Assembly: GCA_963847225.1 (NCBI GenBank)
Contig: CAWJYZ010000003.1
Span: forward strand, 71,365-135,364
Origin: an uncultured bacterium
GTDB lineage: Bacteria > Chloroflexota > Dormibacteria > Aeolococcales > Aeolococcaceae
Length of the DNA: 64,000 bases
Direction: 5' to 3'
Positions 1,595-51,383 of this stretch are shown here, piece by piece. The notes under the pieces are model-generated. The model was not told the DNA's origin and did no database searches. It was given only the letters and a program-made list of their open reading frames with translations. A program made the translations under genes and the position numbers. Numbering within the stretch: the stretch's first letter is position 1; every line of letters starts with the position of its first letter.

Positions 1595-2389
1595 TCAGCG
1601 GATCACAAAGCTGGAGGCTTGGGGTCCCGGCCCCGGGTTGGCGGGTACGGCGATGGCGTCCTCCGCTCCCAGGCCGTCGGCCGTCCCCGAGAAGGCCGGG
1701 CTGGTGGACACGCTGAGCTCCCCATTCTCCAGCTCGACCTCGGTGATCGACCCCCGACCGAGGGGCACCCGCCACCGCTCGCCGGGAAGGTCGCGGACGC
1801 TGGTGAGCATCAGCCGGATCATCACCGCATGGGTGACGGCGGCCACCGCCTCGCCGCCGTGCCGTCCCCCCATCAGCTGCAGACTCTCCAGGAAGCGCTC
1901 GCGTGCCTGGCTGAGCCGTTCACCGTTGGGGCACACGCACTGCAGGGGGTCCTCGCGGTACTGGAAGAAGCTGTCCGGGTCGTACGTTCGGGCCTCGTCC
2001 GCGGTCATCCCCTCCCAGGCGCCGTAGTCGAGGTTGGTGAGGCCGTGCAGGATGCGGATGTCCGGCACGCCCGCCTCGTCGGCGACGATCTGCGCGGTCG
2101 CGATGGTGCGCCGCAGCGGCCCGGTGTAGACAGCGCTCAGCCCGCGCTGGGAGAGGAAGCGGGCCGCGTCGACGGCATCCTGGTACCCCTGGGCGTCGAG
2201 AGGAACGTCGCGCCGGCCGCGATAGCGGTTCTCGCGGTTCATGGTCGTGGTGCCGTGACGGATCAGGTAGACCCGGCACGTCCCGCCGACGCTCACCACC
2301 CGCGGTAGCCCGCGCACAACCTCTGCCGTGTCCACACCGGTCCCCCTCTGATCTGCCTCCGTGTGCTGGACAACTTCGCACATCGCCAT
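1595..2389 (-). CDS. Histidine phosphatase superfamily (branch 1, PGM-like) protein
   Basis: 'RVYLIRHGTTTMNRENRYRGRRDVPLD' (RHG motif), 'GPLRRTIATAQIVAD', 'AAVTHAVMIRLML'. Full-length paralog of 7993..8688. The ORF opens at 2680, but the first ~97 codons have no counterpart in the paralog, so ATG 2389 was chosen. Start uncertain. Confidence 0.8.
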   Translation of the reverse strand: MAMCEVVQHTEADQRGTGVDTAEVVRGLPRVVSVGGTCRVYLIRHGTTTMNRENRYRGRRDVPLDAQGYQDAVDAARFLSQRGLSAVYTGPLRRTIATAQIVADEAGVPDIRILHGLTNLDYGAWEGMTADEARTYDPDSFFQYREDPLQCVCPNGERLSQARERFLESLQLMGGRHGGEAVAAVTHAVMIRLMLTSVRDLPGERWRVPLGRGSITEVELENGELSVSTSPAFSGTADGLGAEDAIAVPANPGPGPQASSFVIR

Positions 2390-2614
2390 CTCGATGGTCA
2401 ACCACCCAGATTGGTCGTCGGGACCCCCCAGATCAGCCCCGCGCAGTGTCCCGACCATGGCGCCGCGGCGGGGTCCTCCCATTGCACCGCCCGGGGTGAC
2501 CGGGGCGGCAGGACCGCTGTGGTAGCGTGTTATCGCTTGGGAAAAACGAAAGGTTCGGAAAGAGAGCGGCCATGGCCGCAGCGAGCCGACATCCCGCCGG
2601 CAGAGCGGCCACGC

Positions 2615-3487
2615 TTGGTCTTCGTGCTCGGCACCGGGCGGTGCGGGTCCACGCTCGTTCAGGAGATCCTCTGCCGCCACCCGGAGGTCGGGTTCGCCTC
2701 CAACCTGGCCGACCGGCTGCGTCTCCCCGCCCGGGCATCACGCTGGAACGGCGTTCTCTACCGCAATCTCCCGGCGGCAGCAACTCGGAAGGGTCGCATC
2801 CGCTACGCGCCATCCGAGTCGTACCGTGCCTTCGATCGGGCAGTGTCGTCTCTGTTGAGCGTTCCCTTCCGCGACCTCGTGGCGGAGGACGTGACCCCGT
2901 GGGTGGAGCGCCAGCTGCGCGCCTTCTTCCTGGGACGAGCGCATGCGCAGGGTGTGGACATCTTCCTTCACAAGCTCACCGGCTGGCCCCGGGTCGGATT
3001 TCTCGACCGGATCTTCCCGCAGGCCCGCTTCATCCACGTTGTGCGCGACGGCCGCGCGGTGGCCAACTCCTGGCTGCAGATGCCCTGGTGGCTCGGCTAC
3101 CGTGGTCCGGAGAAGTGGCAGTGGGGCCCGTTGCCTCCCGACCTTGCGGCCGGCTGGGCGGCGTCCGGATACTCCTTCGTGCTGCTTGCCGGCCTCCTGT
3201 GGGCTCTGCTCCTGGATGCGTACGAGCGAGCGGCCGCAGGACTGCCGGCGGACCGACGGCTGCAAATCCGCTATGAGGACGTCATCGCCCAGCCGCGGGA
3301 GGCCTTCCGGCGCATGCTCGACTTCTGCGGGCTGAGCTGGACACCCGGGTTTGAGCGTGGCTTCCGCCGCTACAGCTTTGCCCGGCAGAGGGAGGACGCC
3401 TTTGTCCGCGACCTCTCGGCCGCCCATGTCGAGCTCCTCACCGCCGCGCTCCGGTCGCGGCTGGTGGCGCACGGCTACGCCGCGTAG
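2615..3487 (+). CDS. PAPS-dependent sulfotransferase (class A, paralog of 8685..9611)
   Basis: 5'-PSB loop 'VLGTGRCGSTLV' and 3'-PB-like 'FIHVVRDGRAVANSWLQ'. The ORF opens at GTG 2363, but there is no ATG before the P-loop. In-frame TTG 2615 gives an N-terminus matching the paralog ('LVFVLGTGRCGST' vs 'LVVVFGTGRCGST'). Start uncertain. Confidence 0.75.
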   Translation: MVFVLGTGRCGSTLVQEILCRHPEVGFASNLADRLRLPARASRWNGVLYRNLPAAATRKGRIRYAPSESYRAFDRAVSSLLSVPFRDLVAEDVTPWVERQLRAFFLGRAHAQGVDIFLHKLTGWPRVGFLDRIFPQARFIHVVRDGRAVANSWLQMPWWLGYRGPEKWQWGPLPPDLAAGWAASGYSFVLLAGLLWALLLDAYERAAAGLPADRRLQIRYEDVIAQPREAFRRMLDFCGLSWTPGFERGFRRYSFARQREDAFVRDLSAAHVELLTAALRSRLVAHGYAA

Positions 3488-3519
3488 CGACAAGGAGGAG
3501 ACGGTCAGCGCTCCCTCGG

Positions 3520-4434
3520 TCAGTCGGCCGTCCCCGGGCTGGGCCGGCGGATGAGCAGTCGGTCACTGCGCCGAACCAGCATCCAGAGCAGCGGGCCGAC
3601 CACCGCCACGGAGAGGACCGTGAGGGCGAGCAGCATGCCGCCCACCTGGACGAGCTTGAGGCCGGTGGCGAGAAGGACGACGGAGAGCATTCGCCGCACC
3701 AGGCGCGGCGGGGCCAGGGACGAGACCTGGGCGCCGAAGAAGACACCGGGGACGCCGCCCACGATGAGCGAAACGCTCAGCGCGAACTGCACGTCGCCGA
3801 AGAGGAGGTGGGCAATCGCTGCGGAGCCGACCAGGGGGATGGCCTGTACTAGGTCGGTGCCGACGAGCTGCGGCGCCGTGAGACGCGGATAGAGGAAGAG
3901 CAAGAGGACGATGATGATGGTCCCCGCGCCCACCGAGGTCATGCCCACCACCAGGCCGCCGAGAGCGCCAACCAGGAGGGTGGGCAAGGGACGGACCTGG
4001 ACGCGCGCCGCGGGGCGGGAGCTGAGGTGCTCTCCGCTGGCGCGCTGGCGGAGATTCAGCAGTGCCTTGAGCACCATGCCCCCCACGGCCAGGAGCAGCG
4101 CCGCGCCGAGAGCGTACTGCACGATGTCCTGGATCCGCCCGCCGTGGGCAAAGAGCTTGAGCAGCAGCACTCCGGCGAACGCACTGGGCACGGAGCCGAT
4201 CCCTAGCCAGAGAGCCATCCTGCCTTGGACGGTGCGGCGGCGCAGGTGGACCGCAGCCCCAAGCGGCCGCATGACCAGAGAGGCGACCAGGTCGCTCGAC
4301 ACCGCGGCAGGGGCTGGCACTCCGAAGAGCAGAACCAGCATCGGGGTCATCAGCGCGCCCCCGCCCATTCCGGTCAGGCCCACGATGAAGCCGACAATCA
4401 GGCTCCCGACCGTGATGGGAAGATCGAGATGCAT
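3520..4434 (-). CDS. TauE/SafE family sulfite/organosulfonate exporter-type permease
   Basis: 'GFIVGLTGMGGGALMTPMLVLLFG' and the second-half repeat 'GALGGLVVGMTSVGAGTIIIVLL'. Polytopic and hydrophobic throughout. Confidence 0.8.
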   Translation of the reverse strand: MHLDLPITVGSLIVGFIVGLTGMGGGALMTPMLVLLFGVPAPAAVSSDLVASLVMRPLGAAVHLRRRTVQGRMALWLGIGSVPSAFAGVLLLKLFAHGGRIQDIVQYALGAALLLAVGGMVLKALLNLRQRASGEHLSSRPAARVQVRPLPTLLVGALGGLVVGMTSVGAGTIIIVLLLFLYPRLTAPQLVGTDLVQAIPLVGSAAIAHLLFGDVQFALSVSLIVGGVPGVFFGAQVSSLAPPRLVRRMLSVVLLATGLKLVQVGGMLLALTVLSVAVVGPLLWMLVRRSDRLLIRRPSPGTAD

Positions 4435-4480
4435 TGGGCCCCCCTCGCTCCTCGTCGGGAGCGCAGCTTCGGATCTAGGT

Positions 4481-4504
4481 ACATCAAGTCAATAGACTTG
4501 GTGT
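4481..4504. promoter_or_regulatory. 24-bp near-perfect palindrome (candidate operator) in the divergent promoter region upstream of the TauE gene
   Basis: ACATCAAGTC-AATA-GACTTGGTGT: 10-bp arms with 1 mismatch and a 4-bp spacer. It lies 47-70 bp upstream of the TauE start (4434) in a locally AT-richer stretch. Confidence 0.4.
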
Positions 4505-4659
4505 TGGAAAACTGTACCCGGGAGGACCGCCGCCGTCAACCGGGGTCCGCGGGGACGCCGCGGGCGAAGCCGTTGGCAGCCGGACGGCCTCCGTGTTCCA
4601 TTGCCTGGCTGAGGGGGCGGCACCAGTTGCGCGCCCGACACCACGAGGGGGAGAGTTCC

Positions 4660-4887
4660 ATGTCCAACGTTGCGACGACCTTTTGGAGCAACCGGCTGAT
4701 GGCCATCGGCTTGGTCGTGATCGCGGCTGTCTGCGCCGCTCTGGCCGTCTTCTACATGACGGTGAAGAGCAGCTTCCTGGCCAGTCATTACGGGCACCAG
4801 CCCAAGCACGCGTTGCTCTTCGCCGGCCTGGCCGTGATCGCCCTCATTGCCGCCAGCATCGTCTGGCGACGCCGGGCTTCGGCCTGA
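4660..4887 (+). CDS. Small two-TM membrane protein, unknown function
   Basis: ATG 4660 is preceded by 'GAGGGGGAGAG'. 'LMAIGLVVIAAVCAALAVFYM' and 'LLFAGLAVIALIAASIVW' are hydrophobic helices. The longer ORF 4225..4887 has a low-complexity N-terminus overlapping the TauE promoter. Confidence 0.45.
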   Translation: MSNVATTFWSNRLMAIGLVVIAAVCAALAVFYMTVKSSFLASHYGHQPKHALLFAGLAVIALIAASIVWRRRASA

Positions 4888-4890
4888 ACG

Positions 4891-6204
4891 TCAGTTCCCG
4901 ATCGGGGGGGCGAGCGGCTGCAGCGGGGTGCCGCCTCCCCCGATTGAGCTCGGGCCGTTGTTGGCAACGACGGCAAGGTGGGAGAAGATCGCGCTGATGT
5001 CGTGGGACCAGGGGGTGCCGGTCCCCGCAGGGGCCTCGAAGGGGAAGCCCCACGCCTGCTGGAACTGCGCCACCATCGATCCCGAGGGCCCCTCCTCCGT
5101 GCACACGGCAAAGACGCTGCGGGCGGCATCGTCGACGACGTAGGCGCCGTAGTTCTGCAGGGTCCAGGCGAGCATCCGCCCGGGCTCGGTCTCCAGCCCG
5201 AGGGAGCCGATGCTCATGCTGGTGGGCAGTGCGAGCAGAGCCCCCATCCGCAGTGCCGGCACCGTCCCTCCATAACAGCCGGGAGCACAGGCGTCGTGGC
5301 GGATCGCAGGCCATCGATAGCCCTGCGGGAAGAGGTCGGTAGCCCCATTCAGATCGATGGCCAGGGCATGCCGGATGCTTCCGCCGGGCACCAGCTCGCC
5401 AAGCCGTATCGCTCCACCGAATGAGCTCAATCCCGAGCCGCCGTGGCCGCCGAGGATGCCATTGCCGTACAGGTCGGCCGCCGGCGAGAGGGTCAGGAGG
5501 GTCGCGGGTCCTCCTGACGCGCAGCGTGCGAAGGGCTCTCCCTGAACAACGGTCCGCCCGTCCGGCATCACCGCGGCGAGGGTGTCGTTCTGCCCGTCGC
5601 TGGCGACGGTGAAGCCCGGCGGTATGGGCGCGCTCGCCAGAGTGCCGCCCCCGGGACACCGGTTGGAACCCGACCATCCCGCCCCGCTGTACTCGATCGT
5701 CGTCATCGGAGCCGTCGGGTCCATGACGATGATGTCCGGGTCGGCGGCCAGGTCTTTGTGGGTCCGGGGTGCAAGGTTGGCCGGGATGAAGAGGCTCCGA
5801 GAGCCAATCGGCATGTTCCAGATGCTGGTCGCCGCGAAAGGCCATACGTACTTGTTGCGCGTGGCGGCAGAGGGCTTGGGCGTGGGGCTCGGGCGGCGGG
5901 TGGCGCTGCGGGGGGCCGTCGCGGAGGAAGAGGGGGTGGTGCTGGCCGCCAGGCTCGGACTGGAACTCGGGCTCGAATAGGGGCTGGGGGGCGTCCACCC
6001 GCCGGAGGCCGGGCCGGCAAGGCCCGCGACGGCAGATGGCAGAACGGGGGTCGAGGAGGTGAGGGCGACATCGCGACCGCCGACCGCCGAGGCGGCCACC
6101 GCTCCGCTGAGCAGCGCACAGATGCAGGCCAGACATCGCCGGCGGGCCGCCCCGCCGGCGCCACCCCCGCGCAAACGGCGCCACAGGGACTCATGATCGC
6201 CCAC
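4891..6204 (-). CDS. Secreted protein: signal peptide, S/P/T-rich linker, unassigned ~320-aa domain ('domain X')
   Basis: GTG 6204 with GAGGGGA 7 nt upstream. Signal-like 'RRRCLACICALLSGAVAASAVGG'. Residues from about 117 align with the C-terminal half of 12295..14454 ('SIWNMPIG', 'GGSGL', 'RHAL', 'YGG..PALRMG.LLA.P', 'AWTL..YGAYVV.D.ARSVFAV', 'NGPS..GGGG.PLQPLA.P'). Confidence 0.75.
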   Translation of the reverse strand: MGDHESLWRRLRGGGAGGAARRRCLACICALLSGAVAASAVGGRDVALTSSTPVLPSAVAGLAGPASGGWTPPSPYSSPSSSPSLAASTTPSSSATAPRSATRRPSPTPKPSAATRNKYVWPFAATSIWNMPIGSRSLFIPANLAPRTHKDLAADPDIIVMDPTAPMTTIEYSGAGWSGSNRCPGGGTLASAPIPPGFTVASDGQNDTLAAVMPDGRTVVQGEPFARCASGGPATLLTLSPAADLYGNGILGGHGGSGLSSFGGAIRLGELVPGGSIRHALAIDLNGATDLFPQGYRWPAIRHDACAPGCYGGTVPALRMGALLALPTSMSIGSLGLETEPGRMLAWTLQNYGAYVVDDAARSVFAVCTEEGPSGSMVAQFQQAWGFPFEAPAGTGTPWSHDISAIFSHLAVVANNGPSSIGGGGTPLQPLAPPIGN

Positions 6205-6296
6205 TGCAGTATCCCCTCGAGATGGCGGGAGCGCGACCTCTGCGGTCGCGTCGCGGCATGTTACCCAGCCGGCTGGGGTACCGTCCAGCCCTCGGC

Positions 6297-6812
6297 TCAG
6301 CGGCCGCTCGGCGCTTCCCTCTCGTGACGGCGGGAGGCGACGGCCACGGGCAGGTCGTCGCTGCCGCTGGCCCGATAGGCAGCGGCCAGATGGCGAACCT
6401 CATCTGGCAAAGAGCCGTCGGCCACGTCGGCCAGGCTCACCTCCTCGAGAACGGAGCGCAGGCTGGCCCGCACCGCCATCCATACATCCTCTAGCGGCTC
6501 GGACGCCCCCCCGTAACCCAGCTGGGCGACGCGAGTGTCGCGCAGGTTGACCAGTGGCCCGTCCACGACCCGCATCACCTCGGCGAGGCTGATCTGCGCC
6601 GGCGGGCGGGAGAGGACGTACCCGCCCTCGGTGCCCCGGTGGCCGGTGACCAGGCGGGCACGCCGGAGTTCAGCCAGGATGCCGAGAAGAAAGCGCAGGG
6701 GGATGTCCTGCTGGGTGGCGAGGCGCTCGGCCTTCAACGGCTTGCCGCCCGGCTCGGCGGCCAGCTGCACCATGGCCCGGAGCGCATAGTCGACCTTGGC
6801 GGAGACCCTCAC
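6297..6812 (-). CDS. Rrf2-family transcriptional regulator
   Basis: 'VRVSAKVDYALRAMVQLA', '...IPLRFLLGILAELRRARLVTGHRGTEGGYVLSRP' (wHTH). GTG 6812 gives the canonical Rrf2 N-terminus; the ORF opens at 6881. Confidence 0.85.
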   Translation of the reverse strand: MRVSAKVDYALRAMVQLAAEPGGKPLKAERLATQQDIPLRFLLGILAELRRARLVTGHRGTEGGYVLSRPPAQISLAEVMRVVDGPLVNLRDTRVAQLGYGGASEPLEDVWMAVRASLRSVLEEVSLADVADGSLPDEVRHLAAAYRASGSDDLPVAVASRRHEREAPSGR

Positions 6813-7001
6813 GGGGGTGATCCTCGCATCTGAGGTGGCTGTGTGCTCACTGCCCGCCCCGCCGATGGGGTCGATCCCCAAAGCGCGGGATGCGATCCCC
6901 CCTCAGCGGGTCGCGCGGAGCCTTCCGATCCGCGCTATCCTGACGGAGGCTGCGAGCCGGCCACGGTTGGGTGGGGGCAGCCCGGTTTCATGAGGGGCCC
7001 A

Positions 7002-7823
7002 ATGAGCGTCAGAGAGAGGGTGGGGGAGCGGAGCGCGTGGCCGCTCGGAGCGGCGGCATTCGATGCCATCCAATCCGACCATGACCTGGCGGGTGCGGTC
7101 GCGGAGGAGGCCGGTCGGGCTCTGCTGTCGCTTCGGAGCGAAGTCGGTCACGACAATCCCGACGTCCTGCGCGATCTGGGCGACAGGCTATCGCACACGC
7201 TGATCACGCTGCGGCTCGCCAAGCAGCGCCCCGGTGATTCGATCCTCTCCGAGGAGGGCGGGGACGGCGCTGCGCGGCTTGCTTCCCGCCGCGTGTGGAT
7301 CGTCGATCCCCTGGACGGCACCCGTGAGTTCGGCGAGGTCGGGCGCTGTGACTGGGCTGTCCATGTCGCCCTGGTCGAAGGCGGCTCGCCCGTTGCCGCT
7401 GCGGTGAGCCTGCCGGCTCGGGGTCTGGTGATGACCACGGCGGCTGTTCCGCCGCGTGCCCCACGGCACGGCGGACGGCTCCGGCTGGTTGTGAGCCGGT
7501 CGCACACCCCGCGGCAGGCAACGGCGATCGCCGAGGACTTGGACGCTGAGCTGATCCACATGGGATCGGCGGGCGCCAAGGCCATGGCCGTCGTTCTCGG
7601 AGAGGCGGACGCGTACATCCACCTCGGCGGCCAATACGAGTGGGACTCCGCTGCCCCGGTCGGCATCGCTCTCGCTGCCGGTCTCCGGGCCAGCCGGATC
7701 GACGGGTCGCCGCTCAGGTACAACCAGCCCAATCCCTGGCTGCCCGACCAGGTGATCTGTCGACCGGAGATGCACTCCCCACTCCTGGTGGCGCTGCGCT
7801 GCCGTGTGCACGCGGCGGCCTGA
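7002..7823 (+). CDS. cysQ: 3'(2'),5'-bisphosphate nucleotidase (PAP phosphatase), inositol-monophosphatase fold
   Basis: 'ILSEEGGD', 'WIVDPLDGTREF', 'GQYEWDSAAPVGIALAAGL'. ATG 7002 is preceded by GAGGGG; the ORF opens at 6843. Confidence 0.85.
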   Translation: MSVRERVGERSAWPLGAAAFDAIQSDHDLAGAVAEEAGRALLSLRSEVGHDNPDVLRDLGDRLSHTLITLRLAKQRPGDSILSEEGGDGAARLASRRVWIVDPLDGTREFGEVGRCDWAVHVALVEGGSPVAAAVSLPARGLVMTTAAVPPRAPRHGGRLRLVVSRSHTPRQATAIAEDLDAELIHMGSAGAKAMAVVLGEADAYIHLGGQYEWDSAAPVGIALAAGLRASRIDGSPLRYNQPNPWLPDQVICRPEMHSPLLVALRCRVHAAA

Positions 7824-7928
7824 TCAGGGGGGGTCCCGCGCTCATCCCGCCAGGGCAGTGGGTCAATCTGTGCATGCTTGACCTACCGAGAGCGGGTTTG
7901 CTGTCTGGACGACGACCGGCGTAGGTTT

Positions 7929-7957
7929 TTGACCGCCTCGACTGGTTAAGGTATCGT
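7929..7957 (+). promoter_or_regulatory. Possible sigma70-type promoter for the phosphatase-sulfotransferase pair
   Basis: TTGACC (7929-7934), 17-nt spacer, TATCGT (7952-7957), about 35 nt upstream of ATG 7993. Pattern match only. Confidence 0.25.
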
Positions 7958-7992
7958 GAGGTTCGCCCAGCGGAAGTCGATGAGGGGAGCCC

Positions 7993-8688
7993 ATGGCTGG
8001 TTCAGCACCGTCCCAATCGCGCGTGCGTTCGGTCGAGGGACCCTGCCGCATCTTCCTGGTGCGTCACGGGACCGCGCGGGTAAACGCGGAGAATCGATAC
8101 CGCGGTCGCTGGGACGTGCCTCTCGACGTGCAGGGATACGAGGACGCGGTGGACGCGGCGCGCGCCCTCTCCGGTGTCCGGCTGAGCGCGGTCTACGCCG
8201 GGCCGCTGCGGCGGACCATCGCCACCGCGCAGATCATCGCCGACCAGTCGGGAATCCCCGACATCCGCATCCTCCAGCAGCTGACCAACGTCGACTACGG
8301 GATGTGGCATGGCATGACCGCGGCCGAGGCCGAGGCGAACAACCCGAAGGCCTTTGGTCTCTACTGCACCTCGCCGCTCGAGTGCGCCTGCCCCAACGGC
8401 GAACGACTGGTGGACGCCCAGGAGAGGATGGTGGAGGCGCTACAGCTCATCGGCGTCCGGCATCCGGGCGAGAATGTGGCCGGTGTCACCCACTCGGTCA
8501 TGATCCGCCTGCTGGTGGCACGGGTCGCGGGGATCAGCGGCCGTGGCTGGAGACTGCCGGTCAGCCGCGACGGGATCGTCGAGCTCCACGTCGAGGACGG
8601 CTCGGTCAGACTGGTCACGCCGCTCGAGGACGATGAGGCGACTTCGCCCGTGGCCCCTGCTGGCATAGGGATCAGCGAGCCCACGTGA
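7993..8688 (+). CDS. Histidine phosphatase superfamily (branch 1) protein, paralog of 1595..2389
   Basis: 'RIFLVRHGTARVNAENRYRGRWDVPLD', 'GPLRRTIATAQIIAD', 'GVTHSVMIRLLV'. RBS GAGGGGAG lies before the ATG. Confidence 0.85.
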   Translation: MAGSAPSQSRVRSVEGPCRIFLVRHGTARVNAENRYRGRWDVPLDVQGYEDAVDAARALSGVRLSAVYAGPLRRTIATAQIIADQSGIPDIRILQQLTNVDYGMWHGMTAAEAEANNPKAFGLYCTSPLECACPNGERLVDAQERMVEALQLIGVRHPGENVAGVTHSVMIRLLVARVAGISGRGWRLPVSRDGIVELHVEDGSVRLVTPLEDDEATSPVAPAGIGISEPT

Positions 8689-9611
8689 CGCTGGTCGTCG
8701 TCTTCGGGACGGGGCGCTGCGGCTCCACCCCCATCGCGGAGGTGCTCTGCCGCCATCGTGATGTCGGCTTCGTCTCGAACGTCGATGACAAGCTGAGCCT
8801 GCTCAACCTGGTGGGCCGCTGGAACAACACGCTTCACCGGCTGTCGCCGCCGCGTGACCCCCGGCTGCGGCCCTTTCGTGACCGGCAGAAGATGATCGAG
8901 CTGGCCCGGCTGCGCATCGCCCCCTCCGAGGCGTGGAAGCTGCTCGACAGACAGGTTGCCCCCATCATGGCGCAGCCCTTCCGCGACCTGCTGGCCGATG
9001 ACTGCACTCCCTGGCTTCGCCAGCGACTGCGCAGCTTCTTCGAGCGCCGCATGGCCGCGCAGCGACGGCCTCTCTTCCTGCAGCACCTCACCGGCTGGCC
9101 GCGGGTGGGCTTGCTACGGGCCGCCTTCCCCGACGCGCGCTTCATCCACGTCATCCGCGACGGCCGAGCGGTCGCCAACTCCTGGCTGCAGATGGGCTGG
9201 TGGCGCGGCTACGAGGGCCCGACCTCCTGGCACCTGGGCCCGCTGGCCGCCGCCGAGGCGGAGGAGTGGGAGCGCTCCGCCCGTTCCTTCGTGGTGCTGG
9301 CCGGCCTGGGCTGGCGGATTCTCATCGACGCCTTCGAGGCGGCCCGAAGGGAGGTCCCGCCCGAGCAGTGGATGCAGCTGCGTTACGAGGATGTCGTGGC
9401 CGAGCCGCGCCGGCAGGTCGCCGCCACGCTCGAGTTCATGGGGCTGCAGTGGAGCGATGACTTCGGGCGCCAGTTCGCCCGCTACCGTTTCGAGGCTGGA
9501 CGGGTGCAAGGCTTCCGTCGCGACCTCGATCCTGCCAGCCTGGCTCAGCTGGAGGTCAGCATCGGGGACAGCCTCCGCGCCTACGGGTACGAGACCTCGG
9601 CCGAGTGCTGA
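8685..9611 (+). CDS. PAPS-dependent sulfotransferase (class A)
   Basis: The GTG start overlaps the upstream stop (GTGA, 8685-8688). 'VFGTGRCGSTPI', 'FIHVIRDGRAVANSWLQ', 'LTGWPRVG'. Confidence 0.85.
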   Translation: MTLVVVFGTGRCGSTPIAEVLCRHRDVGFVSNVDDKLSLLNLVGRWNNTLHRLSPPRDPRLRPFRDRQKMIELARLRIAPSEAWKLLDRQVAPIMAQPFRDLLADDCTPWLRQRLRSFFERRMAAQRRPLFLQHLTGWPRVGLLRAAFPDARFIHVIRDGRAVANSWLQMGWWRGYEGPTSWHLGPLAAAEAEEWERSARSFVVLAGLGWRILIDAFEAARREVPPEQWMQLRYEDVVAEPRRQVAATLEFMGLQWSDDFGRQFARYRFEAGRVQGFRRDLDPASLAQLEVSIGDSLRAYGYETSAEC

Positions 9612-9669: not shown

Positions 9670-10812
9670 TCAGCCGAACAGGGAACTGAGGTCCCCGTTC
9701 CCCGCACTTGCCGCCTGGCCGAGCAGGCCGAGGCGGAAGGCTTCCTCGATGCTCCGCAGGGTGCCGTAGTGATCTCCGGCCAGGCTGACGTTCCGCCGCC
9801 CATGGGCACGAGAGGAGATCACCACCATGGGGATGTGACCGCCTGAGCCCGCACCGCCGCAGCAGGAGCCTGCGTTGGCTGAGCCATCACCCTCGTCCAT
9901 GGTCACGATCACCGTGCTCGCGTAGTCGCGGAACCACGAGGAGGTGAGGATGCCCGGGAGGTTGGCCTGGAGCCAGTTGTCGCCCTGGGTCACGGTGCCG
10001 TTATGCATGTCGTCCTGGAGGTTCGGCGTGATCCACACGAAGTCGGGTGCGTTGGCACCGTCGAGCACGCTCACCGCCGCCGATGCGCCGGGGTAGGGCT
10101 GGATGTGGCAGGCGCCCGAGTAGTTGTCACGGAAGAAGCCGAAGGGATTGTGCTTCAGCGCATAGTTGCCCGACGCGCCACCCGTGTAGCAGGCGGATGG
10201 CATCGATTCTTGCCAGTCCACCCAGGGGATGTCTGCCGCCGTCAACTGGCCGCCGAGGTCGGTGGCGCTGAGACTGTCGGCCGCACAGGAGCTGTCGGAC
10301 GTGCAGCCCTGGATCCCGCCGGAGCCGATGGCCACATAGTTCGGCTCCGAGGGATGGGTGACCCCGTACCAGCCCGTGGCGCTGGCATAGCCCGAGGCCA
10401 GCGAGCAGAGGTAGGGGTCCTGGGAGCATTTGCCCAGCGTCCCCGAGTAGCCGTGGTTCTCCTCCATGACCACGAGAATGTGGGGCCGCCCCCCGCGGGC
10501 TGGTGCCCGGGTGGACGGCGGATGGGTGGGGCTGGAGGTGTGGGCGGCGGGTGCAGCACTCTTGCTGTGTGCCGGCGATGGGGTCGGGGAGGGGCTTCCC
10601 ATGGTCGAGGGCGTGATCGGGAGGGGGAGGCTGATGTCGGGCGTTGGCGTGGAAGTGGCGGTCCGGTGTGAGGTTGGCGTGTTGCCACAGGCGCTGAGAA
10701 GAATGGTGGCCAGGGCCGTCACCAGCGTCCCCCAGCGCGAGATCCGCAACGCGCCGGTAGATGCGGACTTCAAGCCCCAGACCTCGCCTTCCCCGTCGAG
10801 CATTGTCATCAC
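9670..10812 (-). CDS. Secreted lipoprotein, phosphoesterase family (PF04185-like, alkaline-phosphatase superfamily)
   Basis: Lipobox 'ILLSAC' and a P/T/S linker. 'HILVVMEENHGYSG', 'THPSEPNYVAIGSG', 'ALKHNPF', 'ITPNLQDDMHNG'. Confidence 0.8.
   Translation of the reverse strand: MMTMLDGEGEVWGLKSASTGALRISRWGTLVTALATILLSACGNTPTSHRTATSTPTPDISLPLPITPSTMGSPSPTPSPAHSKSAAPAAHTSSPTHPPSTRAPARGGRPHILVVMEENHGYSGTLGKCSQDPYLCSLASGYASATGWYGVTHPSEPNYVAIGSGGIQGCTSDSSCAADSLSATDLGGQLTAADIPWVDWQESMPSACYTGGASGNYALKHNPFGFFRDNYSGACHIQPYPGASAAVSVLDGANAPDFVWITPNLQDDMHNGTVTQGDNWLQANLPGILTSSWFRDYASTVIVTMDEGDGSANAGSCCGGAGSGGHIPMVVISSRAHGRRNVSLAGDHYGTLRSIEEAFRLGLLGQAASAGNGDLSSLFG
9673..10482. repeat. Arm 1 of an inverted ~0.8-kb duplication (phosphoesterase catalytic region)
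   Basis: The reverse complement shares long identical runs with 12415..13218, e.g. 'ctcgtggtcatggaggagaaccacggctactcggg' and 'tacctctgctcgctggcctcgggctatgccagc'. Even the out-of-frame ORF translations match. Confidence 0.7.
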
Positions 10813-10971: not shown

Positions 10972-11895
10972 TCAGACGTACCGCCACCGTTTGAGCAGCG
11001 GCCAGCTGAGCGCGGTCACAGCCCAGCGGCTCGGGGCGGGCAGCCGTGTCCGCCAGGCGTCGTCCTCGCGTAGCGGGACCACCCCCTGCTCGAACCGAGA
11101 ATCGTTGCCCACCGCGGTGTGGTCCTCAGGGAAGTGAACCGCCCCCTCTTTGATGAAGTCGAGATCACGCTGCTGCACAGGCTGGCCGGTGAACCGCGCG
11201 ATCTGGGGCAACGTCTCTCGCGGTGACCTGACCACGTCCTCATAACGGACCAGGAGGCGCGGCGTGCCGGTCTGGGCGATGAGGTCGAAGATGGTGTGGT
11301 AGACCATCCAGCGCAGGGTGATCACCGCCGGAGCGTAGCGATGCTTGTGCACCGGGCGATCCACGCTGTCGCGCATGGTCTGACGCTTGGTGGCCGAGTA
11401 CGCCGTGCCACGGCTGTCCCGGATGAGATGCAGGATGCGCAGGTCGATGCCGGGAATCCCCCGAAGCACCAACGCATAGGCCGGCGCCTTGGTGGAGTCG
11501 ATGACCGTCGCGGCGCCGCTGACCGTCCCCACCCCCTGGTACAAGCGGTCCAGAAGCTCCCGATAGCGCTGCACCCGGCGGCAGAAGCCGGGGAAGAGGC
11601 GGGGAAAGGCGAGCTGCACCAGGTGGCGCTGCCGAGTCACCAGGGGATGCAGAGCCATCAACTCGCCCACCTCCGGAGCATCCCAGCTACCGAAGGTCGC
11701 CTCTCCCACGGCCCGCCAGAAGGGGCAGTCAAGGAAGCGCCGCCCGCAGCCGCAGAGGCGGTTCTCCGCGAGGCTGTGGGTGGTGATGAGGCCGAATTCG
11801 CCGGTGGAGACGAATCCCGGCAGCTGTCCGAGCATGCGGTCGACGAGGGTGCTGCCGCTCCGCGTGCAGCCCCCGATGTAGAGGACTCTCACCAT
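10972..11895 (-). CDS. PAPS-dependent sulfotransferase (class B, Cys-motif type)
   Basis: ATG 11895 with GGAGAGG 6 nt upstream. 'VLYIGGCTRSGSTLV' (PSB loop), 'LCGCGRRFLDCPFW', 'ILHLIRDSRGTAYS'. The ORF opens at 12015. Confidence 0.8.
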   Translation of the reverse strand: MVRVLYIGGCTRSGSTLVDRMLGQLPGFVSTGEFGLITTHSLAENRLCGCGRRFLDCPFWRAVGEATFGSWDAPEVGELMALHPLVTRQRHLVQLAFPRLFPGFCRRVQRYRELLDRLYQGVGTVSGAATVIDSTKAPAYALVLRGIPGIDLRILHLIRDSRGTAYSATKRQTMRDSVDRPVHKHRYAPAVITLRWMVYHTIFDLIAQTGTPRLLVRYEDVVRSPRETLPQIARFTGQPVQQRDLDFIKEGAVHFPEDHTAVGNDSRFEQGVVPLREDDAWRTRLPAPSRWAVTALSWPLLKRWRYV

Positions 11896-12294
11896 GACCC
11901 GCCTCTCCGTGCTCGCCGCTCTCTCCATCCCGGCTGACCGGCTTCCCGCCAGCATATGGGGCGGTGCGCATCGCCCAATGTAGCGCATCCGGTGGCCCGC
12001 ATCAATGCGGGCCATGCTTTGCTCGGCCAGGCCGTGGCCCGCAGATCGCCTCTGTCAGAAAGGCAACGCGTCTGCAACGAAGGCGACGGCCCCGCTACCG
12101 ACGGTGATGGATCGGTTGCAGCGTCGCACATCGCGATGCCGGAGTGTGGCGATTGTAACGGGGATGTAGCGCAGGATCGGGGGTTCCGCGACAGCTGCAC
12201 TCGCCGAGCCTAGAGTTCGCGCGTCGCAACCGGCGCGCCAGGCCGAGCGGGCGCCAGGTGGTGGGAAGGCTCCAGGAATCGGAGGAGCTCACGG

Positions 12295-23473: not shown

Positions 23474-25216
<1,743 letters not shown>

Positions 25217-26516: not shown

Positions 26517-27860
26517 CTACCCGAGACCCTCGGCTGCCGACTCGCCGGGGCCCACCGGAGAGCCGGGGGCCGCGTGGGCCGCCGGCTCGACGGCGGCGAT
26601 TGGCGGCGGCGTCGCGGCCAGGGGCCGGGCCACCCCGCGCAGGTCGACCGGCTCGAGGTCGGCGAGTGGGCGCGAACCGGCTGGCCGCGACGGTGCCACA
26701 CGGCGCAGGCCCAGCCGCGTGTCCCGGAGGCGAAGGAGATCGGCGTAGAGGGTTTCGGTGGCGTCCGTCGCCACCTCCCAGTCGTACTCACGCACCACCC
26801 GTTCGGCAAGCTCCGCCGCGCCACGGCGCTCGTCCGGCAGCGCAGCGAGCACCGCCCCGAGGGTCCGGCTGAGCGCCGCCTGGTCGCCCTGGGGGAAGAG
26901 CCGGGCGCCGGGGGTGTCACGGCTCAGCACCTCGAGGTGTGGGGGGATGTCGCTGACGATCACCGGGAGCCGGTACGAGGCCGCCTCCAGAAGGGTGAGC
27001 GGAAGACCCTCGAGCCGGGAGGGCAGCACGAAGGCGGCGGCGTTGGAGTACAGCTCGTCGCGCAGCGACCCCTGGACAGCACCGGTCGTCACCACCCGCT
27101 CATCCTCGGCCGCCAGGGAGTTGAGGAGACGGACGTATCCGCTGGTGAAGCTGGATCCGCCGGCGATGACCAGACGCCTCGGGGTGTGGACCTGGCGGAA
27201 CGCCCGCAGCAGCAGGTCGGGCGCCTTCTCCGGAACCAGGCGTCCCAGGAAGAGCAGGTAGTCGCCCGTCTCGAGGCCCCATCGATCGGTGATCTGGCGC
27301 GGTTCCCGGACCACCGGAGAGGCGACGCCGTTGGGGATGTAGTGGACGGTCCGGCCGTACCGCTCCCGGTAGTAGTCGACGAGGTTGCGCGAGACGCTGA
27401 TGGTGGCGTGGGGAGCGTGGGCGCTGATCCAACCGGCGGCGCGCAGGCAGGCCCGCGCGCCGAGCCCCCACTTGGCTCGCTCCTGGTCGAGACCGTGAAT
27501 GGTGAGGACGACCCGCGCGGGGGAGAGGGCACGGGGAAGGGGGGAGAATACGGACGGGCCGATGGCGTGGTAATGGATGATGTCGTGGGAGTGCTCTCCG
27601 GGCAGCGTGGCGGCAGCCGTCGAGAGCCCGCTGTGGATCAGCGCCTCGAGCCGTTTGGTGGGAAGGGTGGGCACGTAGCGCACCCGCATGCCGCGGTGCT
27701 CGGCCAGCCTTTCGGGCCCGTAGTTGGCGCGTGCGTACACCGTGACCTGGTGACCGCGGGCAGCCAGGCGCGAGCCGATCTCCTCGACGTGGTGCTCGAT
27801 GCCACCGATGGTGGCGGGAACGCCGCGTTGGCCGATGAAGGCGATCCGCACCGGTCTCAT
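26517..27860 (-). CDS. Glycosyltransferase family 4 (GT-B)
   Basis: 'VRIAFIGQRGVPATIGGIEHHVEEIG' and 'FVLPSRLEGLPLTLLEAASYRLPVIVSDI' (E-x7-E region). Confidence 0.8.
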   Translation of the reverse strand: MRPVRIAFIGQRGVPATIGGIEHHVEEIGSRLAARGHQVTVYARANYGPERLAEHRGMRVRYVPTLPTKRLEALIHSGLSTAAATLPGEHSHDIIHYHAIGPSVFSPLPRALSPARVVLTIHGLDQERAKWGLGARACLRAAGWISAHAPHATISVSRNLVDYYRERYGRTVHYIPNGVASPVVREPRQITDRWGLETGDYLLFLGRLVPEKAPDLLLRAFRQVHTPRRLVIAGGSSFTSGYVRLLNSLAAEDERVVTTGAVQGSLRDELYSNAAAFVLPSRLEGLPLTLLEAASYRLPVIVSDIPPHLEVLSRDTPGARLFPQGDQAALSRTLGAVLAALPDERRGAAELAERVVREYDWEVATDATETLYADLLRLRDTRLGLRRVAPSRPAGSRPLADLEPVDLRGVARPLAATPPPIAAVEPAAHAAPGSPVGPGESAAEGLG

Positions 27861-29098
27861 GCCGCCGCTCGCACGGATGTGGCTCCGGCCTCTGCGTAGA
27901 CACGCTGGAGAAGCTCCAGGTGGCGCTCGGGCGAGAATTCCGTCCGAATCCGCTCACGGGCCTGCTCGCGCATGGCCCAGCCGTGGGCGGGATCGGCCAG
28001 AAAAGGGCGCATCGCGGCGGCGAGGGCGTCCGGGTCGGAGGGGGGGACAAGCTCCCCGGTCACGCCGCTCTCCACCAGTTCGGGCAGGCCGCCGAGGGCG
28101 CTGCCGATGACGGGAAGCCCGCGCGCCAGCGCCTCGAGAACGACCATGGGCTGGTTCTCGTACCAGCGCGAGGGCACTACGACGACCGCAGCTGCCGTCA
28201 TCAGGCGGTGCACCCCGTCCTTGGATAGCAGCCCGTGGAAGCGCACCCGGCCCGGCGCAACGGCGCTGGCGAGGAGGCGGAGCCGCTCCTCCTCGGGACC
28301 GGTGCCGGCGATGTCGAGCTCGGCCCCAGGGAGCAGGCCGACCGCCCGGATGGCGATGTCGACCCCCTTCTCCGGCGACAGCCGCCCGGCGACCAGGGCC
28401 GCACCCCCCGGCGCCGGCTTGGGCGTCATGCCGCGGATATCGATGAAATGGGGGACGTGGCGCATGCGCTGGGGGAAGACCCCAGCCTCGGTCATCTTCG
28501 CGGCCATGAACCGGCTGGGGCAGATGAAGATGCGCACGGGCGAGTAGGCGTGGGTCAGCGTGTGCAGGTACAGCTCCGCGGCGACGACGGCGCTGCGGCC
28601 CAGCGAGCCGTCCTTGCAGCGGCGCCGCACCGCCTGCTGGAAGTGGCCGCCCAGGCAGGCCTCGCAGACACGCCCGTGGTCCAGGAACTGATAGGTGGGA
28701 CAGGCGAGCTTGTAGTCGTGGAGGGTCATCACCGCGGGCAGCCCCCGGCGAGCCACGGGTCGGAGGACGGAGGGGGAGAGCTGGTGGTAGATGTTGTGCA
28801 GGTGGACCACGTCGGGCCGGAAGTCATCGATCACCGCTTCCATACCCCGGCTCGCCGCGGTCGAGTAGAGCATCCGCCCGACCCCGCGAAGCCGGCCGCC
28901 GAGGCTCGGCGGTGGCGGCTCCATCTCGATGTGGGGCGGGAAGTGGGCCGCATACTCGATGTGAGTGTTGTCGGGATGGGCCATGCCGAAGAAGGCGACC
29001 CGGTGGCCAGCTGCGGCTTGGAGCTCGGCCACGTCCTCCATGTACGCCTCCGCGCCGCCGCGGCGGTAGAGGAACTTGTTGACGTGGAGGATCCTCAC
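27857..29098 (-). CDS. Glycosyltransferase family 4 (GT-B)
   Basis: 'MRILHVNKFLYRRGGAEAYM' and 'VVVPSRWYENQPMVVLEALARGLPVIGSALGGLPELV'. ATGA overlap with the downstream GT. Confidence 0.8.
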   Translation of the reverse strand: MRILHVNKFLYRRGGAEAYMEDVAELQAAAGHRVAFFGMAHPDNTHIEYAAHFPPHIEMEPPPPSLGGRLRGVGRMLYSTAASRGMEAVIDDFRPDVVHLHNIYHQLSPSVLRPVARRGLPAVMTLHDYKLACPTYQFLDHGRVCEACLGGHFQQAVRRRCKDGSLGRSAVVAAELYLHTLTHAYSPVRIFICPSRFMAAKMTEAGVFPQRMRHVPHFIDIRGMTPKPAPGGAALVAGRLSPEKGVDIAIRAVGLLPGAELDIAGTGPEEERLRLLASAVAPGRVRFHGLLSKDGVHRLMTAAAVVVVPSRWYENQPMVVLEALARGLPVIGSALGGLPELVESGVTGELVPPSDPDALAAAMRPFLADPAHGWAMREQARERIRTEFSPERHLELLQRVYAEAGATSVRAAA

Positions 29099-29163
29099 TG
29101 GCAGGGTGCCCTCACCGTCGTGCCTTGGCGGTTCTCACGTGGAGCCCCCTCTCCCATTCCGCG

Positions 29164-30645: not shown

Positions 30646-30697
30646 CGGACCGGCTCCTCGGTGACCGGGGCACGGCCCCGTGGGCTGTCCCAGCTGC

Positions 30698-33567: not shown

Positions 33568-33669
33568 GGGGGAGGGATCTGAGCCTGCTCCTGCCGCGAT
33601 GCAGCGATCGCACCGTCGCGACTGCGCGTGATCACCGAGGTGCTCGAGGGCGGAAGGAGGGGCGGCGGG

Positions 33670-36680: not shown

Positions 36681-36923
36681 GGTCCCCCTCTGCCGTCTCG
36701 GCTCCCCGCTTGCGCCTGGTCACCGTGGACTGCTCGGATAAAATCAGCCGTGCCCGAAGACTGAGGCATTATCCCAGGCCGGTCCGCAAAGAGTCAATTT
36801 GTCGACATCGAAAGCTTCCGCGGCGGAGTGGGGGAATGCAACCCAATTGGGGGATCGGTGGCCCATTCAGGGGGGATATTGGGGGACGGTAGACGGAAAT
36901 ACCGCCGCCGCCATCGCCCGCTG

Positions 36924-36952
36924 TTGACCCATCCAGTCCGTTCAGGTACGCT
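36924..36952 (+). promoter_or_regulatory. Possible sigma70-type promoter for the priming transferase / PAPS synthase operon
   Basis: TTGACC (36924-36929), 17-nt spacer, TACGCT (36947-36952), about 70 nt upstream of ATG 37023. Pattern match only. Confidence 0.3.
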
Positions 36953-37022
36953 GAGTGGTGCACAGCTGGCGGGGCAGTGGCCTCTTGTATCACCTGACGC
37001 CGGCTGCACAGAGGGGGTCTGC

Positions 37023-51377: not shown

Positions 51378-51383
51378 CCTTGC

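Follow-up and report, generated by a model that had tools for sequence, protein, structure and literature searches.

What does a small histidine phosphatase do beside a sulfotransferase, and why does this arrangement occur twice in one locus? The window, i.e., the whole stretch of 64,000 nucleotides analysed here, carries two such pairs, consisting of the following genes.

HP1, 1595..2389, minus strand: branch-1 histidine phosphatase, widespread (actinobacterial-type) clade of its subfamily
ST1, 2615..3487, plus strand: PAPS-type sulfotransferase, divergent from HP1
HP2, 7993..8688, plus strand: branch-1 histidine phosphatase, Dormibacteraeota clade of the subfamily
ST2, 8685..9611, plus strand: PAPS-type sulfotransferase, its start overlapping the HP2 stop (GTGA)

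The four genes and their families, as given by the original prediction, are upheld by Pfam: His_Phos_1 is matched by HP1 (E 5e-45) and HP2 (E 8e-43), and Sulfotransfer_3 by ST1 (E 3e-27) and ST2 (E 7e-24). The paralogy proposed for both couples also holds, with 61% identity between HP1 and HP2 over 200 aa (E 1e-89) and 49% between ST1 and ST2 over 300 aa (E 1e-95). The genes of pair 1 point away from each other across a 225-bp spacer (2390-2614), and ST1 begins with a TTG codon. The overlap claimed for pair 2 can be read directly in bases 8685-8688, where the start codon of ST2, GTG (8685-8687), shares two bases with the stop codon of HP2, TGA (8686-8688); the resulting N-terminus of ST2, MTLVVVFGTGRCGST, agrees with those of its homologues. 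Neither the 5'-PSB loop (GTGRCGST) nor the 3'-PB motif (RDGRAVANS) varies, and ST1 contains both. By sequence, the nearest solved relatives of ST2 are tyrosylprotein sulfotransferases, a resemblance at the motif level only.

Judged from sequence, both phosphatases are members of a single tight subfamily of small, soluble enzymes, uncharacterised so far, which comprises only 33 clusters at 50% identity (E <= 1e-30) and is 55-70% identical across Dormibacteraeota and Actinomycetota. The AF2 model of HP2 (pLDDT 82) predicts an ordinary PhoE/PspA/CobC-like phosphatase fold, matching PhoE/YhfR of Geobacillus (1H2E), PspA (4IJ5), CobC (6E4B) and GpgP (4PZA) with Foldseek E 1e-14 and TM 0.75-0.85. 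Like HP1 and HP2, these enzymes are single-domain proteins of similar size with the RHG nucleophile motif, a second arginine and a second histidine, but identity is only 25-31%, and none of them is tied to sulfation genes. No named NCBIfam family reaches its cut-off; the best named match is the nucleotide-type phosphatase CobC, which like GpgP and PspA scores far below, and SixA appears as a weak match. Orthology to GpgP, PspA or CobC was rejected on these scores. Upon alignment, the catalytic residues expected of such an enzyme are mostly in place: RHG (R24/H25), R73/R74 and H167 are present, and the nucleophile histidine, both arginines and the second histidine are invariant across the subfamily. 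The exception is the canonical proton-donor glutamate (E83 in PhoE), whose position is occupied by asparagine (Asn99) in every subfamily member; at the same place, Asp followed by Glu is seen in more distant relatives. Because this glutamate is missing, catalytic activity itself is only putative. A further difference is the loop NRYRGR, whose RYRGR has extra arginines compared with RRMQG in PhoE-type enzymes.

The surroundings of the pairs place both phosphatases among genes of sulfate activation and polysaccharide assembly.

TauE/SafE-family anion permease, 3520..4434, minus strand: Pfam TauE E 4e-39, convergent with ST1
Rrf2-family regulator, 6297..6881, minus strand: Pfam Rrf2 E 2e-32, divergent from cysQ
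CysQ, 3'-phosphoadenosine-5'-phosphate phosphatase, 6843..7823, plus strand: Inositol_P E 2e-29
PF04185 phosphoesterase, 9670..10812, minus strand: Pfam Phosphoesterase E 2e-23
ST3, third sulfotransferase, 10972..12015, minus strand: Sulfotransfer_3 E 4e-12
Two GT4 glycosyltransferases, 26517..29134, minus strand: Pfam Glycos_transf_1 and Glyco_transf_4
Wzy_C/O-antigen-ligase-like polymerase, 29164..30702, minus strand: Pfam Wzy_C E 3e-22
MurJ-family flippase, 30698..32443, minus strand: Pfam MurJ E 4e-51
ST4, fourth sulfotransferase, 32560..33669, minus strand: Sulfotransfer_3 E 7e-15, 34% identical to ST3
Priming phosphoglycosyl transferase (Bac_transf and CoA_binding_3), 36828..38576, plus strand: Pfam Bac_transf E 3e-69
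Fused PAPS synthase, 38628..40283, plus strand: APS_kinase E 2e-59, PUA_2, ATP-sulfurylase E 1e-94

With four sulfotransferases (ST1-ST4) and a PAPS synthase whose APS kinase is N-terminal and ATP sulfurylase C-terminal, the window is, by its predicted gene content, a PAPS-sulfation and Wzx/Wzy glycan island, a wider setting which the original prediction had overlooked. The DNA probably stems from a Dormibacteraeota genome. The priming transferase shares 46% identity with the gene that opens HP-containing operons elsewhere, and TauE-like genes often adjoin HP homologues in other loci too. CysQ lies directly upstream of HP2, 170 bp away; it matches M. tuberculosis CysQ (5DJF) with 238 bits (E 9e-70) over residues from position 7068 onward, and its real start probably lies downstream of 6843. 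The Rrf2-family gene exceeds the cut-off for rrf2_super in NCBIfam; its best named match, CymR (75.6 bits), is below cut-off.

Clusters with the same parts list have been described for Wzx/Wzy sulfated exopolysaccharides, namely xss/synechan of Synechocystis (PMC8205485) and wps-1 of Actinoplanes missouriensis (PMC13390465). The word "phosphatase" is absent from the wps-1 paper (PMC13390465). Both clusters share with the present island a priming transferase, a flippase, a Wzy-like polymerase, a chain-length regulator, glycosyltransferases, several sulfotransferases and an adjacent sulfate adenylyltransferase/APS kinase. The study of the xss cluster reportedly lists no phosphatase. As the original prediction had supposed, no description of a pathway with a phosphatase step tied to a sulfotransferase was found in the searched literature.

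The functional coupling proposed for the two families is borne out by their adjacency in other genomes. Metagenomic loci around HP homologues were scanned, 21 of which are well flanked (3 kb or more on each side). A sulfotransferase-fold gene lies within 2.5 kb of HP in 19 of these 21 loci (and in 29 of the 32 loci that extend 3 kb or more downstream), some sulfation gene is present in 20, and a Sat-type ATP sulfurylase is linked to it in 15. Where no sulfotransferase is adjacent, HP adjoins Sat, CysC or TauE, and most Dormibacteraeota loci have retained a CysQ gene close to HP. The adjacency occurs in all four orientations, in two phyla and on many unrelated contigs. Furthermore, a mobile two-gene ST-HP cassette recurs in Actinomycetota amid unrelated flanks, including a cultured Pedococcus, where it lies near a TauE-like permease with no glycan-assembly genes nearby; Pedococcus ginsenosidimutans JCM 18961 is one cultured carrier of HP. 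A common actinobacterial operon has the order HP, directly followed by GT4, then a sulfotransferase-fold gene. Since sulfotransferase genes are rare, 19 of 21 would be far above chance. The subfamily is thus nearly always found a few genes from a sulfotransferase-fold gene, a Sat/CysC PAPS synthase, CysQ or TauE, regardless of the sulfotransferase family involved. Phosphatase and sulfotransferase families are functionally linked and the pairing is not due to chance. Its recurrence in many soil-bacterial genomes suggests that sulfation in bacteria has an auxiliary step so far undescribed.

The partners themselves are very divergent: they come from four sulfotransferase families (ST1/2, ST3/4, the pair at locus L165, and U275), which share about 26% identity or give no BLAST alignment. 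U275, a previously unannotated family, is predicted to have a sulfotransferase fold, recognised by structure only: its AF2 model has a pLDDT of 87.7, and the top 50 Foldseek matches in the PDB are all PAPS sulfotransferases. The usual partner of an HP2-type gene in Dormibacteraeota is a convergent ST3-like gene. ST3 is 66-71% identical to the sulfotransferase convergent with HP in nine such loci (L081, L083, L084 and L088-L093), of which it is, from these identities, the orthologue. The original suggestion that an existing pairing survived duplication is not supported in that form. HP1 groups with the homologues of loci L155 and L165, apart from HP2, so that a recent duplication was rejected in favour of deep paralogues in separate clades; orthologues of ST1 and ST2 in close relatives are mostly not beside HP, and no HP was found within 8 kb in 11/11 Dormibacteraeota loci with an ST2 orthologue. 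Separate HP clades and sulfotransferase orthologues mostly without HP point to two old lineages, each near a sulfotransferase, rather than to a duplicated pair.

How might the phosphatase contribute to sulfation? That it is a housekeeping enzyme which came to lie in sulfation islands by chance is very unlikely: in its favour, 73/80 loci anchored on ST1/2 lack HP within 8 kb, which indicates that enzymes of this family do not generally require it, but viewed from HP the sulfotransferase is there in every orientation, in both phyla and with changing flanks. We prefer, tentatively and as a possibility rather than a probability, that the subfamily is a dedicated helper in PAPS-dependent sulfation whose substrate lies on the cofactor side (PAP or PAPS). 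As HP is conserved while its partner changes, its substrate is probably one common to every sulfotransferase, i.e., on the nucleotide side. HP would hydrolyse the 3'-phosphate of PAP, possibly also of PAPS, close to the sulfotransferase, and would thereby ease inhibition by the product while a Wzx/Wzy-made glycan is being heavily sulfated, on top of the Mg-dependent CysQ. The Arg-rich loop putatively fits such a polyanionic substrate, and the invariant Asp two residues after Asn99 may replace Glu as proton donor. PAP removal, already proposed in the original prediction, is retained as the best guess, weakened by the bona fide CysQ: with CysQ next to HP2 and near most Dormibacteraeota HPs, a plain PAP phosphatase would be redundant. 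CysQ/HAL2-type enzymes would share this role, yet differ in fold and mechanism, belonging to the inositol-monophosphatase superfamily, whereas HP is a phospho-histidine enzyme. No histidine-phosphatase-type PAP phosphatase was found in the searched literature, and to our knowledge none is known. The constant cassette with variable flanks supports cofactor-side action, and also the nearly as likely alternative, likewise proposed originally, that HP dephosphorylates the compound which its neighbour sulfates, before or after sulfation. This reading, which we regard as a serious if doubtful candidate, would make ST and HP a two-step pathway on a sugar phosphate or glycosyl-phospho intermediate, whose anionic product TauE might export. 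It accommodates the Pedococcus copy and pair 1, where these three families are likewise together (HP1, ST1, TauE), as well as the operon order with GT4, reminiscent of synthase/phosphatase pairs such as sucrose-phosphate synthase and its phosphatase, and it leaves PAP to CysQ. GpgP exemplifies the same fold acting on glycosyl-phospho compounds, but the comparison suffers from HP not being its orthologue, nor that of PspA or CobC. Moreover, no kinase or phospho-sugar synthase consistently adjoins HP, and a phosphatase this conserved beside four unrelated sulfotransferase families, or beside Sat, CysC or TauE alone, would need one common phosphorylated acceptor everywhere. The several sulfotransferases of a cluster may act on one glycan, so that such partner diversity would be compatible with a shared acceptor.

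Two further roles appear improbable. HP could be a regulatory protein phosphatase controlling glycan assembly, as the superfamily includes the protein phosphatases SixA, Sts-1 and PGAM5. Proposed targets are the chain-length-regulator/BY-kinase-like protein (a Wzz plus P-loop protein is encoded immediately upstream of HP in 34 loci) or a phospho-His/Asp relay, for instance that of the hybrid histidine kinase whose gene ends 25 bp from HP1; the weak SixA match would fit. However, the Walker A motif of these upstream proteins is degenerate (SPAWEEKTT) and they lack a C-terminal tyrosine cluster, which makes BY-kinase activity unlikely; the window, despite its two HPs, has no homologue of the Wzz/P-loop protein, which is also absent from the cassette and Dormibacteraeota loci, and histidine kinases are not consistent neighbours. 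Similarly unlikely is a different part in the cofactor cycle, either phosphate transfer from PAP to APS by a dPGM-like ping-pong mechanism or hydrolysis of Sat-made pyrophosphate, which would pull APS formation forward. The linkage to Sat and the Arg-rich phosphate-binding loop agree with it, it would not be redundant with CysQ, and the change of Glu to Asn might be expected to slow phospho-enzyme hydrolysis, or to matter less with a good leaving group. The case is inferential throughout, though, and we know of no precedent in the superfamily for either reaction, which counts against it; given the Asp and Glu of distant relatives, Asn may also be a drift variant, with Asp101 as the acid.

An independent case comes from Pseudomonas syringae pv. 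phaseolicola 1448A, where an HrpL-regulated plasmid operon co-transcribes a phosphoglycerate-mutase family gene (PSPPH_A0112) near a sulfotransferase gene (PSPPH_A0109), in a different phylum and context (PMC3879358). PSPPH_A0112 was rejected as a subfamily member, since none of the plasmid records contains a protein more than 40% identical to HP2. Within the window, the PF04185 phosphoesterase, whose translation, read by eye, shows a hydrophobic segment at the N-terminus and a linker rich in Pro/Ser/Thr, is probably secreted and may be a neighbour outside the mechanism; in Dormibacteraeota MAGs, orthologues of ST2 and ST3 also have genes of this family at their side.

The two predicted phosphatase-sulfotransferase pairs comprise four genes, which lie where the original prediction had placed them and whose matches to Pfam profiles support both family assignments:

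1595-2389 (-): HP1, histidine phosphatase of pair 1, Pfam His_Phos_1 (E 5e-45)
2615-3487 (+): ST1, PAPS-type sulfotransferase of pair 1, Pfam Sulfotransfer_3 (E 3e-27)
7993-8688 (+): HP2, histidine phosphatase of pair 2, Pfam His_Phos_1 (E 8e-43)
8685-9611 (+): ST2, PAPS-type sulfotransferase of pair 2, Pfam Sulfotransfer_3 (E 7e-24)

HP1 and HP2 share 61% identity over 200 residues, and ST1 and ST2 49% over 300 residues. Pair 1 is divergent, with a spacer of 225 bp, and in pair 2 the anticipated overlap of the HP2 stop with the ST2 start is present as GTGA at bases 8685-8688, with the N-terminus of ST2 in agreement with its homologues. Both sulfotransferases exceed the Pfam gathering score (PF13469/PF00685 membership), and in all 15 aligned sequences the 5'-phosphosulfate-binding loop GTGRCGST and the 3'-phosphate-binding motif RDGRAVANS are invariant. 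These align with GVPRSGTTL and VRDGRASVHS of human TPST2, a likeness to tyrosylprotein sulfotransferases which exists at the motif level only (E 2e-8).

Counted from the phosphatase, the functional link with sulfotransferases is general and strongly supported. On long Dormibacteraeota contigs retrieved by homologue look-ups, HP (the subfamily of HP1 and HP2) is convergent with a sulfotransferase resembling ST3 of the window and has the PAP phosphatase CysQ upstream; in Petropleomorpha and one other contig, it adjoins a Sat-type ATP sulfurylase. An HP-anchored metagenome scan added 80 further loci, including 21 which were well flanked (at least 3 kb on both sides). With the window proteins as the only probes, a sulfation gene was detected in 18 of these 21 loci, with Sat in 15 of the 18. 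When all sulfotransferase-fold probes were used, some sulfation gene was found in 20/21, and a sulfotransferase-fold gene lay at most 2.5 kb from HP in 19/21, so that the expected adjacency is indeed common in other genomes. Where 3 kb of downstream sequence was available, such a gene was present in 29 of 32 HP loci. Clustering of the neighbouring ORFs revealed a common operon of a priming transferase, one or two MurJ-like flippases, a Wzz/P-loop protein, HP, a GT4 glycosyltransferase, a 275-aa protein and Sat-CysC (CysC being the APS kinase). The partners vary considerably: the HP of L165 (loci from other genomes and metagenomes carry L numbers), 72% identical to HP1 and among its closest relatives, has another sulfotransferase pair, one on each side, and the four partner sulfotransferase families share about 26% mutual identity or cannot be aligned by BLAST.

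The 275-aa protein of this operon represents a family of about 265-285 aa, annotated as "hypothetical proteins" and usually located between HP/GT4 and the Sat-CysC gene (L107:7992-8819, L082:6671-7462, L102:6678-7592 and about 35 other loci). At the sequence level the family matched nothing in Pfam or the PDB, nor, by hhalign, the ST alignment. The family motifs, VIDGYTRSASTF and LIREPxGAILSQ, and an AF2 model (pLDDT 87.7) with a PAPS sulfotransferase as every one of its 50 best PDB matches (probability ~1), indicate a previously unannotated, very divergent predicted sulfotransferase family.

The scan from the opposite side was anchored on the alignment of ST1/2 homologues, with one genome per species, and yielded 80 loci, covered over 8 kb to either side, of which only seven have an HP homologue (L012, L014, L016 and L019-L022). 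The gene order is HP, ST, CysQ in L012, and ST followed by HP in L016 and L019-L022, which originate from Nocardioidaceae, Oryzihumus, Pedococcus and Propionibacteriales and whose HP is 63-67% identical to HP1; the HP-like gene of L014 is a distant relative. No HP was found within 8 kb of the 11 closest ST2 orthologues, all of them from Dormibacteraeota, and the ST loci of Micromonospora and Phytohabitans contain tandem sulfotransferases in place of HP. Since HP is absent from most ST-anchored loci, sulfotransferases of the ST1/2 type do not generally need an HP nearby. In L027-L079 (Micromonospora, Phytohabitans, Polymorphospora), a sulfotransferase trio with no HP within 8 kb is conserved, comprising a gene like ST4 of the window, then an ST2-like gene, and a distant third about 4 kb upstream on the opposite strand. 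This Micromonosporaceae trio may be connected with the Actinoplanes clusters for which a sulfated exopolysaccharide is predicted.

In L016, L019-L022 and L145, ST is 71-78% and HP 73-80% identical to the reference L022, and the flanking genes differ. In the cultured Pedococcus ginsenosidimutans JCM 18961 (L022:6320-9606), a permease like the anion permease TauE and a lectin-like protein are located on one side of ST-HP, unrelated hydantoinase and CoA-transferase genes on the other, and no glycan-assembly genes were found around the cassette. Its trio of TauE, ST and HP belongs to the same families as pair 1 of the window. Petropleomorpha daqingensis (L082) and Geodermatophilus ruber are further cultured bacteria with an HP gene.

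The two pairs had been thought to descend from one pair whose partnership outlived duplication, which is not borne out, as HP1 and HP2 fall into different deep clades. When all HP homologues were placed in a neighbour-joining tree, HP2 grouped with the Dormibacteraeota sequences, which are usually partnered by a convergent ST3-like gene, and HP1 with L155 and L165 in the other deep clade. This tree and the differing neighbours of the ST1 and ST2 orthologues rule out a recent segmental duplication of the pair. By contig coordinates, the ST2 orthologue and the HP/ST3 pair of relatives are on one contig, some 20 kb apart (L001 with L081, L008 with L083), and the window order HP2-ST2-PE-ST3 (PE being a PF04185 phosphoesterase) is therefore a local rearrangement; it is also found in a few other contigs (L106, L109, L152).

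The window has a G+C content of about 69%, and its closest proteins come from Candidatus Dormibacteraeota MAGs (ST2 65-80%, HP2 63-73%, CysQ about 65-70%, ST3 66-71%). Further genes of sulfation and glycan assembly are as follows:

3520-4434: TauE permease
6297-6881 (-): Rrf2 regulator, nearest named match CymR, under cut-off
6843-7823 (+): CysQ, 238 bits and E 9e-70 over 240 residues to M. tuberculosis CysQ 5DJF
10972-12015: ST3, sulfotransferase (Sulfotransfer_3)
32560-33669: ST4, sulfotransferase (Sulfotransfer_3)
36828-38576: priming transferase (Bac_transf)
38628-40283: fused PAPS synthase (APS_kinase and ATP-sulfurylase)
in the window: two GT4 glycosyltransferases, a Wzy-like gene (Wzy_C) and a MurJ-type flippase

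The part list for a Wzx/Wzy sulfated polysaccharide is thus complete, with priming transferase, flippase, polymerase, glycosyltransferases, four Sulfotransfer_3 proteins, PAPS supply and CysQ, and it is the same as that of the cyanobacterial xss cluster and the wps-1 cluster of Actinoplanes. Judged by gene content, the window appears to be a PAPS-fed Wzx/Wzy glycan-sulfation island with a predicted sulfated product, in an organism represented solely by metagenomes. The cysQ gene ends 170 bp upstream of HP2, and its product has TIGR01331 as its top NCBIfam match, under the cut-off. The Rrf2 ORF overlaps the longest cysQ ORF by 39 bases; because CysQ homology begins only near 7068, cysQ probably starts further downstream, in divergent arrangement with the Rrf2 gene. 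The Rrf2 protein may make sense at this place as a regulator of sulfur status. The search for an Rrf2-site motif shared by the HP1-ST1, Rrf2-cysQ and cysQ-HP2 spacers returned only short GC-rich matches of 10-12 bases, which is chance level at 69% GC. In the PAPS synthase of the window, the APS kinase is N-terminal and the ATP sulfurylase C-terminal, an order which is reversed in actinobacterial-type operons (L107:8862-10646), and the two fusion orders probably have independent origins.

HP1 and HP2 score far over the gathering score of PF00300 and have an alpha/beta PGM-like fold. Foldseek with the predicted HP structure retrieved PspA, PhoE and CobC at E 1e-14, and the modelled fold is of the small-phosphatase type (PspA, PhoE, CobC, GpgP). 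The subfamily is tight, with 55-70% identity between members across phyla, and a search of 1.8 billion representatives yielded only 33 clusters (50% identity) of its homologues at E <= 1e-30. As for the catalytic residues expected of a histidine phosphatase, the RHG motif, the second arginine and the second histidine are present on alignment, but the glutamate proton donor is absent. R24, H25 (the nucleophilic histidine of RHG), R73/R74 and H167 (the second histidine) show little or no variation in 31 sequences and correspond in the alignment to R10, H11, R59 and H151 of PhoE. The proton donor of dPGM is E89, the counterpart of PhoE E83; in an ungapped HMMER alignment, LREIHLGDWEG of PhoE, containing E83, stands opposite LNNVDYGAWEG of HP, which places Asn99 at the Glu position. 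Asn occupies this position in 120/120 close homologues (pattern x-N-[VL]-D/E-Y-G), followed two residues later by Asp in all but one of the 120, which has Glu. In homologues of 35-46% identity the Glu position is occupied by Asp, and in still more remote ones by Glu. Asp101 may be a candidate substitute proton donor. The phosphate-binding loop is NRYRGR, with extra arginines.

None of the named NCBIfam families searched with HP1 and HP2 reached its cut-off. PspA was rejected at 96-97 bits against a cut-off of 350, CobC at 103-110 bits against 162.9 (TIGR03162), and SixA and MSMEG_4193 at scores under their cut-offs. GpgP of the Rv2419c type was also rejected, the match to 4PZ9 being partial and only 38 bits, with no NCBIfam equivalog at cut-off. 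In the window as in the HP loci, the glycosyltransferases encountered belong to GT4. PADLOC defence-system models gave no match for HP1 or HP2.

With regard to function, we tentatively favour a putative role in which HP would dephosphorylate PAP or PAPS close to the sulfotransferase, since a conserved HP, an interchangeable sulfotransferase partner and the link with Sat, CysC, TauE and CysQ suggest a substrate common to all sulfation. The chief objection is the true CysQ adjoining HP2. That the locus already has a CysQ next door, and that ST-HP(-TauE) forms a self-contained cassette, argue for a phosphatase acting on the acceptor side, a possible role which we regard as nearly as likely. HP might also be a protein phosphatase of an upstream "kinase" (BY-kinase, Wzc/Wzb type), as a Wzz and AAA_31 protein is encoded directly upstream of HP in 34 loci (L107:4181-5869, L097:4346-5935 and 32 others). 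This partnership is weakened and was demoted, however, because all 16 of the 16 upstream proteins checked have a degenerate Walker A motif and lack Tyr in their last 30 residues, and because the window contains no homologue of the protein. With a Walker A decayed to S-P-A-W-E-E-K-T-T and no C-terminal tyrosine cluster, the upstream protein looks like a pseudo-BY-kinase.

A phosphotransferase or pyrophosphatase activity of HP is possible and, to our knowledge, without precedent. In dPGM, phosphate is passed between glycerates, and HP could, though this is very improbable, act as a cofactor recycler whose phospho-His takes the 3'-phosphate of PAP and hands it to APS. PAPS would then be remade without ATP and the inhibitor PAP removed in the same step, the invariant Glu-to-Asn exchange would curb wasteful hydrolysis of the phospho-enzyme, and the location of HP beside both Sat-type sulfurylases and sulfotransferases, as well as its coexistence with CysQ, would be explained.

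Bacterial sulfation is usually described by four activities, namely ATP sulfurylase, APS kinase, sulfotransferase and CysQ, and a fifth conserved component, a predicted phosphatase, would make this scheme incomplete for many soil bacteria of the Actinomycetota and Dormibacteraeota. A metal-independent PAP or PAPS phosphatase, the favoured reading of HP, would add a new class of enzyme to that step. The yield of in-vitro sulfation is limited by PAP inhibition, and an HP which removes the phosphate of PAP or PAPS could serve as an additive. Should the acceptor prove to be its target, HP would define a new two-step pathway leading to a sulfated metabolite.

As originally supposed, no described pathway is known to pair a histidine phosphatase with a PAPS sulfotransferase; full-text literature searches found none, and no paper tying a histidine phosphatase to PAP/PAPS or to a sulfotransferase mechanism. 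Incidental and unexplained co-occurrences are a histidine phosphatase encoded at the margin of the nucleocidin cluster, required for fluorination and not for sulfamylation, and an HrpL-regulated plasmid operon of P. syringae with a PGM-family gene and a sulfotransferase (PMC3879358). The latter is an independent case, as the plasmid collection contains no member of the HP subfamily (every match <40% identity). Among bacteria, sulfated polysaccharides were long believed to be near-exclusive to cyanobacteria (PMC13390465); the loci described here indicate that soil metagenomes commonly contain PAPS-fed Wzx/Wzy clusters.

Several paralogous PF04185 phosphoesterases are found in the set 9670-10812 (-), 12295-14454 (+), 22028-23089 (-), 23474-25441 (-) and 4891-6204 (-), one of them fused to a domain homologous to the 4891-6204 protein. 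They carry Pro/Ser/Thr-rich linkers and are probably secreted; in other Dormibacteraeota MAGs, these families adjoin ST2/ST3 orthologues, sometimes with more than 1000 aa and CarboxypepD_reg repeats. Hybrid histidine kinases carrying receiver domains are encoded at two sites, 74-1570 (+), ending 25 bp from the HP1 stop, and 49458-51383 (-), with a GAF domain; across the other HP loci, no kinase was seen as a consistent neighbour. An ABC-type ATPase at 52123-54342 (+) matches AAA_15/AAA_21/DUF2813 and, weakly and mainly over the ATPase motif region, the PADLOC models of the AriA, GajA and Old-type defence ATPases. Beside the glycan island there may be a cluster for a type IV pilus or type II secretion, as suggested by two T2SSE-family secretion ATPases at 40735-41880 (+) and 46315-48096 (-), of which one has an MshEN domain.
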